This document shows positions 13,378-59,903 of a DNA stretch of 64,000 nucleotides, piece by piece. The position numbers and the translations under genes were made by a program. Numbering within the stretch: position 1 is the first letter of the stretch; every line of letters begins with the position of its first letter. The notes below the pieces were generated by a model, which had not been told where the DNA came from, ran no database searches, and saw nothing but the letters and a program-made list of their open reading frames with translations. The stretch lies in NCBI RefSeq assembly GCF_041248615.1, contig NZ_CP158426.1. One strand, 5' to 3'. The DNA comes from Escherichia coli. Its GTDB lineage: Bacteria; Pseudomonadota; Gammaproteobacteria; Enterobacterales; Enterobacteriaceae.

Positions 13378-16300
13378 TTACTCCTGACGGCGCGGTTTAC
13401 CGGCAAACAAACGTTTCACCAGTACAAAAAACAGAGGAACAAAGAAAATAGCCAGCAACGTAGCGGTCAGCGTACCGCCAATAATGCCCGTACCAATGGC
13501 GATGCGGCTGTTCGCCCCTGCGCCGGTTGCTATCGCCAGCGGCATTACCCCCGCAATAAACGCCAGCGAGGTCATGATGATTGGGCGTAAACGAGTCTGC
13601 GCCGCGCGTAATGCCGCACGACTCAAGGAATAGCCCTCTGCAACCGCCGCTTCAGCAAATTCCACAATCAGAATGGCGTTTTTCGACGACAAGCCGATAG
13701 TGGTTAATAGCGCCACCTGGAAGTAAACATCGTTGTTTAAATCACGCATCCAGGCCGCCAGCGCCGCGCCAAGAAGCCCCAGAGGGATCACCAGAATGAC
13801 CGAGAACGGGACTGACCAGCTTTCGTACAGTGCTGCAAGGCAGAGGAAAACCACCAGAATAGAAACTGCATACAGACTTAATGCCTGACCGCTGGCCAGT
13901 TTCTCCTGCAATGACAAACCACTCCAGGCCCAGGTTGTTCCCGCAGGAAGACTGTTTGCCAGTTCCTCCATTTTTGTCATTGCATCGCCGGAACTAAAGC
14001 CAGTCGCATTTTCCCCCTGAATTTCATAGGCTGCAGAACCGTTGTAGCGCACCAGTCTTTCCGGTCCATACAGCCAGCGGGTGGTCGCAAAAGCAGAGAA
14101 TGGTGTCATGGCGTTATCGCTACCGCGCACAAACCATTTACCTAAGTCTGACGGCGCGGAACGAAATTCACTGTCGCCCTGAATGTAGACTTTTTTCACA
14201 CGACCACGGTCAATAAAGTCATTCACATAAGTACCGCCCCACGCACTGGACAGGGTGTCGGTGACATCATTCAAACTCAACCCTAATGACACCGCTTTAT
14301 TACTATCAATATCTACCTGCAATTGCGGCATTTGTGGCAAATCATTAGCACGCACAGAATGTAACTCCGGACTTTGATTCGCTTTTTCTATCAACTGATT
14401 ACGCATTTGCAGTAGTGTTTCGCGATCGGTTCCACCGTTAGCTAACAATTCAAACGTAAAACCATTGCTTTGCCCCAGCCCATCAACGGCTGGCGGCGTC
14501 ATCGCAAATACCGTGGCATCACGAATTGTGCCCAGCTCTTTGGTTGCCCGTAGGGCGATAGCCTGGGCGGTGTTTTCTGCCCCTTTACGTTGAGACCAGT
14601 TTTTCAACGAAACAAACGCCATCCCGGTGTTCTGTCCGCTGCCGCTAAAACTGAAACCATCAACGGTAAAAATAACATCGGTATTTGCTTTCTCATTAAT
14701 CAGGAACCAGTCAACAATCTGGCGATTCACTTCTGCTGTACGGGCAGCGGTCGCCCCGGCCGGCAGCGTGTACTGCACCATGATTTCGCCCTGGTCTTCA
14801 GTGGGTAAGAAACTGCCCGGCAGTTTCCACATCATCAGGGCCATTCCACCACCCAGTACGACATAAAGCCCCATCGTTCGAGCAGCACGGCGCAGGACAT
14901 AAATTACGCCTCGCTGATATTTATCTTCAGTACGGCGGTAAAAGCGGTTAAATGCGCCGAAAAAGCCTTTTTTATGTGGCGGAACATGCTGGAGGACGGA
15001 ACCGCACAGGGCGGGAGTCAAGGTCAATGCCACTACCACGGAAAGCAGCATTGCGGAGATAATGGTTATCGAAAACTGACGATAAATTACCCCCGTAGAT
15101 CCCCCAAAGAAGGCCATAGGCAGGAATACGGCTGATAACACCAGCGCAATGGCAACCAGTGCGCCAGAAATCTCGCCCATTGATTTTTCCGTGGCTTCAC
15201 GCGCGGGCAACCCTTCGTCACGCATAATGCGTTCGACGTTCTCCACCACCACAATGGCATCGTCCACCAGCAAGCCGATCGCCAGGACCATTGCAAACAA
15301 CGTCAGGGTATTAATCGAATAGCCAAACAACGCAAGAACGCCGAATGTGCCCAGCAAAACGACGGGGACAGCTAACGCCGGAATCAGTGTGGCACGCAGG
15401 TTTTGCAGGAATAAATACATCACGCAAACCACCAATACGATGGCTTCAAACAGCGTCTGAATTACGTCCTCTACAGAGATTTTAATAAATTCAGTGCTGT
15501 CTTTCGGGTATGCGATGTCGTATCCCTGCGGCATGTTCCGCTGGAATTCGGCAATCTTATCCTTGACCAGCGTCGCCGTATTCAGCGCATTCGCACCGGG
15601 CGAAAGCATTACAGCAACCCCGGCAGACGGGTGACCGTTAAGTTTGCCGATAGCGGTATAATCTTCACTGCCCATCTCAACGCGAGCCACATCTTTTATA
15701 CGAACAACTGCGCCGTCTGACTGGCTTTTCACGATAATATTTTTGAACTGATCCACCGTCTGCAAGCGAGACTGCGCACGTACCGTTGCGGTCAGTTGCT
15801 GAGTATTCGGTGAAGGCAATGCCCCTATTTTCCCGGCAGTAACCTGCACGTTTTGCGCTTCAATAGCACTTTGCACGTCTGAAGGCATTAGCGAGTAAGA
15901 CGCCAGTTTGGCCGGGTCAAGCCAGATGCGCATAGCGTATTCCGCGCCAAAGACTTGCAGACTCCCCACACCTTCAACACGCGCCAGCGGGTCCTGAACG
16001 TTACTAACCAACCAGTCGGCGATATCCGAACTGGAGGCTTTATCAGTGGTGTCATACACGGCAGCAATCAGCAAAAAGTTGCTTTGTGATTTCTCCACCG
16101 TAACACCCGTTTGCTGCACTTCGCTGGGTAGGCGCGACTCCGCCTGCTGAATTTTATTCTGCACCTGAACCTGTGCAGTATCTGGATCGGTACCTTGTTC
16201 AAAGGTCACATTAATACTGACCGAACCATCAGAGCTACTGGTTGAGCTGAAATAGAGTAAATTATCAAGCCCAGTGAGTTGTTGCTCGATAACCTGAGTC

Positions 16301-58164: not shown

Positions 58165-58803
58165 TTAAAAACGATATCCTGCTGAGAACATAAACACCCA
58201 CGGATCGAGGCGTACGCTATCGTGTTGCTGTGCACCGCCCAGCTTATAATTGGCGGTGGTATCAATATCCATGTACCACACTGACATGTTAACCAACCAG
58301 TCACGGTTAATCAGATAATCAACCCCCACCTGCCCGGCAGCTCCCCAGGAATCTTTCAGACTGAGATCGGAAAGCCCCGCCTCTTTGCCATGATCGTTAA
58401 ATCCATTATCAAAGAAGGTGGTGTAGTTAATACCTGCCCCAACGTAAGGACGGAATTTGCTGCTGGCATCACCAAAATACCACTGCGCCATCAGTGTTGG
58501 CGGCAGATGATGAACGGTTGCAATATCGCCGGTCGCCCGGGTGCCGATTTTATGGCGGAACGGCGTCGCTGCCAGCAATTCCACACCAATGTTATCGGTC
58601 GCCATATAAGTAAACGTCAGGCCCAGTTGCGTGTTATTGGTCACGCTGAATCCACCCAGACTTCCTAACGTACCACCAGCACCTTCTGTTGGACGTACGG
58701 TTGCAGAACCTGCACGCATAAAAAATTCGCCTGCTTCATGCGCAAAGGCACTGCCAGAGAGAAGAGTTGTTACTGCCAAAGCCGCCACTGTTAACTTTTT
58801 CAT
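58165..58803 (-). CDS. ompW: outer membrane protein W
   Basis: 212-aa ORF with signal peptide and C-terminal aromatic residue; matches OmpW. Confidence 0.95.
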   Translation of the reverse strand: MKKLTVAALAVTTLLSGSAFAHEAGEFFMRAGSATVRPTEGAGGTLGSLGGFSVTNNTQLGLTFTYMATDNIGVELLAATPFRHKIGTRATGDIATVHHLPPTLMAQWYFGDASSKFRPYVGAGINYTTFFDNGFNDHGKEAGLSDLSLKDSWGAAGQVGVDYLINRDWLVNMSVWYMDIDTTANYKLGGAQQHDSVRLDPWVFMFSAGYRF

Positions 58804-59159
58804 ATCCGCTCCGTCGTTATGGTTATAAAAACGTGACGAATATACCTACATTGGAGTAACAAATGATCCTACATAGATCACATTACATATGATAATTCAC
58901 CCTTTATTGATCTGGATTAATTTAGAAGTTGCATTGAGAATCCTGGTTAACGTGATTTAAATCAATTTTTAAATATTTTCGCTACGCAAATATTAACTCG
59001 TTCGCCACTTGCCGCGGTTTGCCCACGCCTGAAGGCCAGCAATTACCTCCGCTTTACAAAGATATGCTTTTCCATACAAGACCTGATGCTGCCACCCGAG
59101 GCTTAACCAGGGTACAATTGCCCGCTAATTAACACCTGCATAAAACTCAAGGAGAGTGC

Positions 59160-59903
59160 ATGTCTATCACGGCGCAGTCCGTATACCGTGACACCGGAAA
59201 TTTCTTCCGTAATCAATTTATGACCATTCTGTTGGTATCGTTGCTATGTGCGTTTATCACAGTGGTGTTAGGGCATGTTTTCTCACCCAGTGATGCACAG
59301 CTTGCGCAGCTCAATGATGGCGTGCCCGTTAGCGGCAGTAGTGGGTTGTTCGACCTGGTTCAGAATATGTCACCGGAACAGCAACAAATTTTGCTGCAGG
59401 CTTCAGCGGCGTCCACTTTTTCAGGATTAATCGGTAACGCCATTCTCGCCGGAGGCGTAATATTAATTATCCAGCTGGTGTCTGCGGGTCAGAGAGTCAG
59501 TGCGCTGCGAGGTATTGGTGCCAGTGCGCCGATATTGCCAAAGTTATTTATTCTGATTTTTCTGACTACCCTTTTAGTACAGATTGGCATCATGCTGGTG
59601 GTCGTTCCGGGAATTATCATGGCTATTTTACTGGCCCTGGCACCGGTGATGTTGGTACAGGACAAAATGGGCGTTTTTGCCTCGATGCGTAGCAGTATGC
59701 GGCTGACTTGGGCGAATATGCGTCTGGTGGCACCCGCAGTACTGAGCTGGTTGCTGGCAAAAACACTGTTGCTGCTTTTTGCCTCTTCTTTTGCCGCATT
59801 AACCCCGGAAATTGGTGCCGTACTGGCGAACACCTTGAGCAACCTGATTTCAGCCGTACTGCTCATCTATCTGTTCCGCCTGTATATGTTGATTCGCCAA
59901 TAA
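59160..59903 (+). CDS. yciC: inner membrane protein YciC (UPF0259)
   Basis: 247-aa polytopic membrane ORF matching YciC. Confidence 0.85.

Follow-up and report, generated by a model that had tools for sequence, protein, structure and literature searches.

Is the short palindrome upstream of ompW in an Escherichia coli chromosome a working FNR operator, and if it is, which gene does it serve and by what means? The window analysed here is a 64,000-nucleotide stretch of the E. coli chromosome that carries yciG, yciF, yciE, ompW (minus strand), yciC, yciB, and yciA in annotated order. The 1.1 kb around the motif is 100% identical to NZ_OW967178.1, and the same 1.1 kb was found in 5,422 of 5,426 complete E. 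coli genomes. The plus-strand gene yciC starts at 59160, and the divergent ompW-yciC spacer of 356 bp holds the motif. Seven features of the window are needed to follow the argument.

58165..58803, minus strand: ompW coding sequence (212 aa), the regulated gene; from the open reading frame and the RefSeq annotation of identical DNA.
58832, minus strand: ompW transcription start site, a G located 29 bp upstream of the ATG; from 5' RLM-RACE (Xiao 2016), with the base confirmed as G.
58839..58844, minus strand: -10 hexamer TATATT at -12..-7; read from the sequence and invariant in 22 of 22 aligned sequences.
58843..58858, minus strand: NarL site centred at -18.5, TACTCCAATGTAGGTA; from its position and from the mutation and NarL-P shift of Xiao 2016.
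58867..58882, minus strand: CRP site centred at -42.5, TGTGATCTATGTAGGA; from an exact match of sequence and offset, the TGTGA deletion of Xiao 2016, and gel shift with cAMP.
58907..58920, minus strand: FNR site at -81.5, activating, TTAATCCAGATCAA on the ompW strand; from sequence, geometry, gel shift, lacZ mutagenesis, ChIP-seq, and conservation.
58952..58965, minus strand: FNR site at -126.5, repressing according to the literature, TTGATTTAAATCAC; from sequence, position, that literature, and a PatSer score of 15.03.

The motif, TTGATCTGGATTAA, occupies 58907..58920 with its centre at 58913.5, and it matches 9 of the 10 specified positions of TTGAT-N4-ATCAA at the correct 4-bp spacing. This agrees with the original prediction, which had described an FNR half-site pair with one mismatch to that consensus. 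The sole mismatch of ttgatctggattaa is a T for C at position 12 on the plus strand, where the ompW strand reads TTAAT, not TTGAT. The predicted sequence ttgatctggattaa is thus present on the plus strand, but the interval assigned to it, 58890..58915, covers only the first 9 bases of 58907..58920. A distance of about 100 bp to the ompW start codon had been given, which is acceptable, as the A of the ATG is 110.5 bp from the centre of the motif and 104 bp from its near edge; the motif is also on the correct side, upstream of the minus-strand ompW. We considered the motif as a CRP site and rejected this, since it has no GTGA/TCAC core and CRP is published to bind elsewhere, at 58867..58882.

The bare pattern is not enriched in the 64-kb window, where 3 matches with at most 1 mismatch were found against 3.03 +/- 1.75 expected from shuffles. 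Two of the three matches lie 45 bp apart within the 356-bp ompW-yciC spacer, for which 0.017 would be expected (post-hoc Poisson P(>=2) ~1.4e-4). The third match, TTTATTACTATCAA at 14296..14309, fits the chance expectation.

The motif is an already published and experimentally tested FNR site of E. coli ompW, that is, the same element in another strain. Xiao et al. 2016 (PMC4886647) described the same 14-mer, TTAATCCAGATCAA, as the FNR site at -81.5 of ompW and TTGATTTAAATCAC as a second one at -126.5. When the published ompW start site, which agrees with that of Mendoza-Vargas 2009 (Xiao 2016, PMC4886647), is mapped onto the window, the motif centre falls exactly at -81.5, and all published sites (FNR -81.5, FNR -126.5, CRP -42.5, and NarL -18.5) are found with identical sequence and at exact offsets from 58832. 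The window differs from the K-12 ompW promoter in flanking SNPs only, such as a G in the window for the A of K-12 just after the -126.5 site, and both FNR sites are unchanged.

The binding of FNR to both sites was demonstrated with purified FNR-D154A, which gave two shifted bands with the wild-type fragment, one when either site was mutated, and none when both were mutated (Xiao 2016, PMC4886647). Changing TCAA to CTGG in the -81.5 site removed one of the shifted bands and lowered anaerobic PompW-lacZ activity ~3-fold, down to the level of an fnr deletion strain (Xiao 2016, PMC4886647); the size of this effect, ~3-fold, is modest. The activating site is centred at -81.5 rather than at the class I (-61.5) or class II (-41.5) position, and Xiao et al. 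2016 (PMC4886647) call this placement unconventional.

The site at -126.5 was overlooked by the original prediction. On the plus strand it reads GTGATTTAAATCAA, a 9/10 match to the consensus, and it lies 45 bp upstream of the -81.5 site. Its mutation or deletion raised ompW-lacZ expression 2- to 3-fold, and did so only with the -81.5 site intact (Xiao 2016, PMC4886647). The original prediction therefore needs three corrections: its coordinates were shifted, there are two FNR sites and not one, and the -81.5 position is non-canonical. It is worth mentioning that strain ET729 (NZ_CP100927.1) may carry an insertion ~30 bp upstream of the -126.5 FNR site, since its match to the spacer runs only as far as query position 237 (window ~58996) and the record shows two places.

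Occupancy in vivo comes from ChIP-seq. Both 14-mers are listed by Myers et al. 2013 (PMC3688515) in Table S6 as PatSer hits "at FNR ChIP-seq peak", the -126.5 site with start 1311882 and score 15.03, and the -81.5 site with start 1311927 and score 14.3, which is above the genome-wide threshold of that table. Table 1 of the same paper (PMC3688515) gives the ompW site position as -126.5 and the ChIP-seq summit as 1,311,935. In the coordinates of the paper, this summit is inside the -81.5 14-mer (1311927..1311940) and 46.5 bp from the -126.5 centre, which, within the resolution limits of ChIP-seq, is a small point in favour of heavier occupation of the -81.5 site. Myers et al. 2013 (PMC3688515) placed ompW among the operons directly repressed by FNR via -126.5, yet it is anaerobically induced, and the net sign of FNR action on ompW is thus condition-dependent.

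The FNR-dependent anaerobic induction of ompW that the original prediction had stated is borne out: TTAATCCAGATCAA is identical to the published FNR site, and gel shift, reporter mutation, and ChIP-seq agree. Neither the start site nor FNR binding maps elsewhere, as the published geometry is reproduced exactly and the ChIP-seq summit lies inside the 14-mer. We found no base-resolution FNR footprint (DNase or ChIP-exo) at the ompW promoter in the publications consulted, and the evidence consists of gel shift, mutagenesis, and ChIP-seq. A phylogenetic footprinting study from 2026 (PMC13058942) likewise has peaks at the CRP and NarL sites and at each of the two FNR sites; it describes the ompW promoter as among the best annotated in E. 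coli, hence its use as a benchmark, and gives both FNR sites, the start site, and the regulators as curated in RegulonDB.

Several other regulators act on the same promoter. Mutation of the NarL site relieves nitrate repression, and NarL-P shifts the fragment; H-NS silences ompW aerobically, FNR counteracts it, and deletion of hns raises aerobic expression; expression of ompW in an fnr hns double deletion is higher than in the fnr deletion alone; and the repression by ArcA is FNR-dependent (Xiao 2016, PMC4886647). The -35 region of ompW (ATCATT) is poor. A generic sigma-70 scan of 58750..59200 missed the ompW promoter because its -35 is weak, returning only a yciC-side candidate at 59089..59118, and we therefore took the start site from the literature. 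At the CRP region, conservation across genera covers TGTGATC and, further downstream, a GATCAy arm. They form a conserved inverted repeat, GTGATC-N7-GATCAy, at 58863..58881 (minus strand, ~-49..-31) with its centre near -40, which is 5 bp wider than the canonical CRP site TGTGA-N6-TCACA, while the right half of the published 16-mer is poor (TAGGA). The second GATCAy arm may be part of the -35 region.

On the yciC side, RefSeq annotates a 29-codon pseudogene fragment as "YkgJ family cysteine cluster protein, missing N-terminus" (LPPLYKDMLFHTRPDAATRGLTRVQLPAN, then a stop) at 59043..59132 on the plus strand of the window, just upstream of yciC. By tblastn, the fragment recurs in the same place with 62-90% amino-acid identity in Salmonella, Huaxiibacter, Lelliottia, Phytobacter, Enterobacter kpr-6, UBA7338, and E. 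coli E69 (90%). It overlaps the predicted yciC promoter, so it could be what is left of an old gene or, alternatively, a conserved leader or promoter of yciC.

Within the species, conservation was evaluated in an alignment of 9 diverse E. coli strains sampled down the identity ranking (K-12-like, EDL933, EC958, ECONIH2, and others). None of these 9 strains varies at any of the 10 specified positions of either FNR site; the SNPs that do occur lie in the flanks and in the N4 spacers, where EC958 has T for C and MINF_9A has G for A. Of the 5,426 E. coli genomes, 2,559 carry the exact 30-mer around the -81.5 site and 766 the one around the -126.5 site, from which the FNR sites might be taken to be polymorphic. 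We rejected this, as the 9-strain alignment puts the SNPs in spacers and flanks, outside the consensus positions, and the 30-mer counts are thus no measure of site conservation.

For other genera, we scanned contigs with a degenerate pattern for the OmpW peptide GEFFMRAG, so that loci were chosen independently of the promoter. The scan gave 33 loci, of which five were not ompW: two in Nostoc and one each in Oscillibacter, a marine gammaproteobacterium, and a Clostridia MAG. A length filter took out the Clostridia hit, and the other four were removed by hand. Three ompW loci were excluded, namely L019 (too little upstream DNA), L006 (no in-frame ATG), and L022 (reading frame truncated), and a further one, L024, was extracted with only ~100 nt upstream. 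This left 24 usable loci besides the window, from Salmonella arizonae and diarizonae, Enterobacter, Cedecea, Buttiauxella, Atlantibacter, Phytobacter, Dryocola, Huaxiibacter, Lelliottia, a second E. coli, and two unclassified Enterobacteriaceae. An FNR-like site with at most 2 mismatches is present in the ompW upstream region of every one of them (24/24), at 107.5 to 117.5 bp from the ATG and mostly at 110.5, where the chance rate of such a match is ~0.0009 per position.

The degree of conservation within the site was read from column identities in an alignment of 22 sequences, covering ~11 named genera and two unclassified Enterobacteriaceae.

FNR -81.5, distal half-site: mean column identity 0.98 (22 sequences).
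FNR -81.5, proximal half-site: mean column identity 0.91 (22 sequences).
FNR -81.5, N4 spacer: mean column identity 0.84 (22 sequences).
Neighbouring non-site DNA: mean column identity 0.43 to 0.54 (22 sequences).

The half-sites are more conserved than the spacer and the background, as expected for an FNR dimer, and the DNA flanking the site has largely diverged among genera. In many genera the ortholog of the -81.5 site matches only 8/10 positions (TTAATCCAGATCAT) and is there a putative FNR site. The non-consensus A of TTAAT is kept in 22/22 aligned sequences, and TTGAT never occurs at that half. TTAAT half-sites recur among ChIP-bound FNR sites at uspF, katG, cspA, and ynfE (Myers 2013, PMC3688515). 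At the -126.5 site, the TTGAT half is moderately conserved across genera, with a mean identity of 0.75, and the other half has 0.57; the site is not recognisable in Buttiauxella in the alignment of ompW upstream regions.

On the promoter side, conservation continues unbroken from the FNR site into an adjoining block.

58894..58906, minus strand: conserved block abutting the FNR site, -74..-62; mean identity 0.93, the putative counterpart of the Salmonella ArcA site ABS-1.

The block reads TAAATGTTAAATT in other genera, TAAAGGGTGAATT in E. coli, and TAAATGGTGAATT in some E. coli strains. In Salmonella Typhimurium, ABS-1 (GTTAA at -70..-66) was identified by mutation and by gel shift with ArcA-P (Morales et al. 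2012), and we infer that the -74..-62 block of E. coli corresponds to it. In E. coli, GGGTG or TGGTG replaces TGTTA, with a G/T polymorphism at -70; the TGGTG variant occurs in EDL933, MINF_9A, S1-ZIM, and AMSCJX02. To judge from these sequences, the adjoining block looks like a decayed ArcA box in the E. coli lineage. We also noted an ArcA-box-like direct repeat, TGTTA-N6-TGTAG with 11-bp spacing (TGTTACTCCAATGTAG, window 58846..58861, minus strand, -29..-14), which sits between -35 and -10 and overlaps the NarL site. RegulonDB places an E. coli ArcA site over the core promoter (per PMC13058942), and the -29..-14 repeat may be that site.

The comparison suggests a turnover of the ArcA site between the Salmonella and E. 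coli lineages. We put forward, as a possible but rather doubtful extension, that the -81.5 site is half of a conserved composite FNR-ArcA element, AAATTAATCnnGATCAwTrAATGTTAAATTA, in which the imperfect distal TTAAT would tune FNR affinity, and that in E. coli the ArcA core has decayed (TGTTA to GGGTG/TGGTG) and the core-promoter TGTTA-N6-TGTAG repeat is used instead. If true, the turnover would explain why ArcA repression of E. coli ompW requires FNR, as well as the differing placement of ArcA in the E. coli and Salmonella papers.

Taken as a whole, the motif is, with high confidence, the promoter-proximal of two FNR operators at ompW, where FNR binding raises transcription and the second site would damp it. 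As oxygen falls, dimeric [4Fe-4S] FNR binds the 9/10 site at -81.5, and ompW transcription rises ~3-fold. As active FNR accumulates, a second dimer would occupy -126.5 and damp expression, and this damping together with ArcA would produce a microaerobic maximum of ompW. CRP (-42.5), NarL (-18.5), and H-NS contribute carbon-source, nitrate, and aerobic-silencing inputs.

FNR binding, the consequence of mutating the site, the start site, occupancy of the region in the cell, and conservation are all demonstrated. How the -81.5 dimer activates is a matter of interpretation. The published proposal is that FNR at -81.5 counteracts silencing by H-NS (Xiao 2016, PMC4886647). Alternatively, FNR at -81.5 could be a class-I-type activator that contacts the alpha C-terminal domain of RNA polymerase and co-activates with CRP at -42.5 (tandem or "class III"), instead of or besides displacing H-NS; we consider this possible, though on balance unlikely. 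A CRP site in a class-II-like position at -42.5 together with a poor -35 hexamer is typical of activator-dependent promoters and would suit such a contact. The -81.5 centre is also within 1 bp of -82.5, which in the spacing study of Wing et al. from 1995 is said to be among the upstream positions that lie on the correct helical face and permit activation by FNR and CRP. Tandem co-activation by CRP and FNR is known at ansB. In addition, the FNR site keeps a constant distance across genera from both the CRP site and the -10 hexamer, as expected if helical phasing matters, but the adjacent ArcA block could account for this just as well, and -81.5 misses the optimal -82.5 phase by 1 bp. Moreover, Xiao 2016 (PMC4886647) read the epistasis of the hns and fnr deletions as anti-silencing.

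Other readings dispute the identity or the target of the operator itself, which we take to be FNR acting on ompW. The conserved block could be primarily an operator for ArcA or another factor, its resemblance to an FNR site being incidental. This would fit the unbroken conservation into TAAATGTTAAATT and the retention of the off-consensus A in TTAAT by every one of the 22 aligned sequences, and the adjoining ArcA box, not FNR, may indeed account for part of the conservation of the block. However, the gel shift of purified FNR-D154A needs the TCAA of the -81.5 site, the ChIP-seq summit lies there, the N4 spacer is less conserved than the half-sites in the manner of an FNR dimer, TTAAT half-sites also occur at the ChIP-bound uspF, katG, cspA, and ynfE, and E. 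coli is without the TGTTA core while its FNR site is intact; we therefore regard this reading as improbable. That the sites serve the divergent yciC, and not ompW, is more improbable still. They do lie in the shared spacer, the divergent arrangement is conserved across genera, and Table S5 of Myers 2013 (PMC3688515) labels the peak yciC/ompW, but 59089..59118 is the sole promoter-like match on the yciC side, so that any yciC start would be some 165 and 210 bp downstream of the two FNR sites, and the lacZ data show effects on ompW. Control of yciC by these sites was thus rejected on distance. A functionless chance match to a short degenerate palindrome, for which the window total (3 matches against 3.03 expected) would speak, is the least credible of all, being refuted by the published mutagenesis, gel shift, and ChIP-seq, and opposed by positional conservation in 24/24 orthologous promoters.

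The finding itself is an ordinary one, as the site, its partner site, the start site, and the regulators are all already published. Its main value is that a reader with the sequence alone can spot a genuine regulator site. Two modest points are left, namely the mode of activation at -81.5 (counter-silencing of H-NS versus an alpha contact with CRP) and the apparent turnover of the ArcA box between Salmonella and E. coli.

The arrangement can be compared with known systems. The ansB promoter resembles that of ompW in having one CRP-family dimer near -41.5 and a second far upstream, both of them activating at ansB, while co-activation at ompW is putative. The tandem FNR and CRP sites of ansB reportedly both contribute to activation, according to Scott, Busby and Beacham in 1995. 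The roles are swapped there, with FNR at -41.5 and CRP at -91.5. The yfiD (grcA) promoter is similar to the scheme proposed for ompW in that it has two FNR sites, of which the upstream one damps, and a microaerobic maximum. Occupation of its upstream FNR site is said, in work of Marshall et al. from 2001, to damp activation and give that maximum. Both yfiD sites are listed in Myers Table S6, 53 bp apart (PMC3688515). The activating site of yfiD is class II (-40.5) and the damping site is at -93.5, in contrast to ompW, which FNR activates from -81.5 and which has CRP in the class-II-like position.

The cydAB promoter shares with ompW the control by FNR, ArcA, and H-NS and a microaerobic maximum, a parallel drawn by Xiao 2016 (PMC4886647), and two cydA FNR sites are listed in Myers Table S6 (PMC3688515). 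However, FNR is purely a repressor at cydAB, and ArcA is an activator or anti-silencer there. The orthologous ompW promoter of Salmonella Typhimurium has ABS-1 (GTTAA, -70..-66) abutting an FNR-like site, CTGGATCAATAAATGTTAAATTA, and differs in its TGTTA, which is GGGTG or TGGTG in E. coli. The closest system is the K-12 ompW promoter itself, whose -81.5 site (Xiao 2016; Myers 2013 Table S6) is the identical 14-mer, with the same offsets to the start site, the ATG, the CRP and NarL sites, and the second FNR site.
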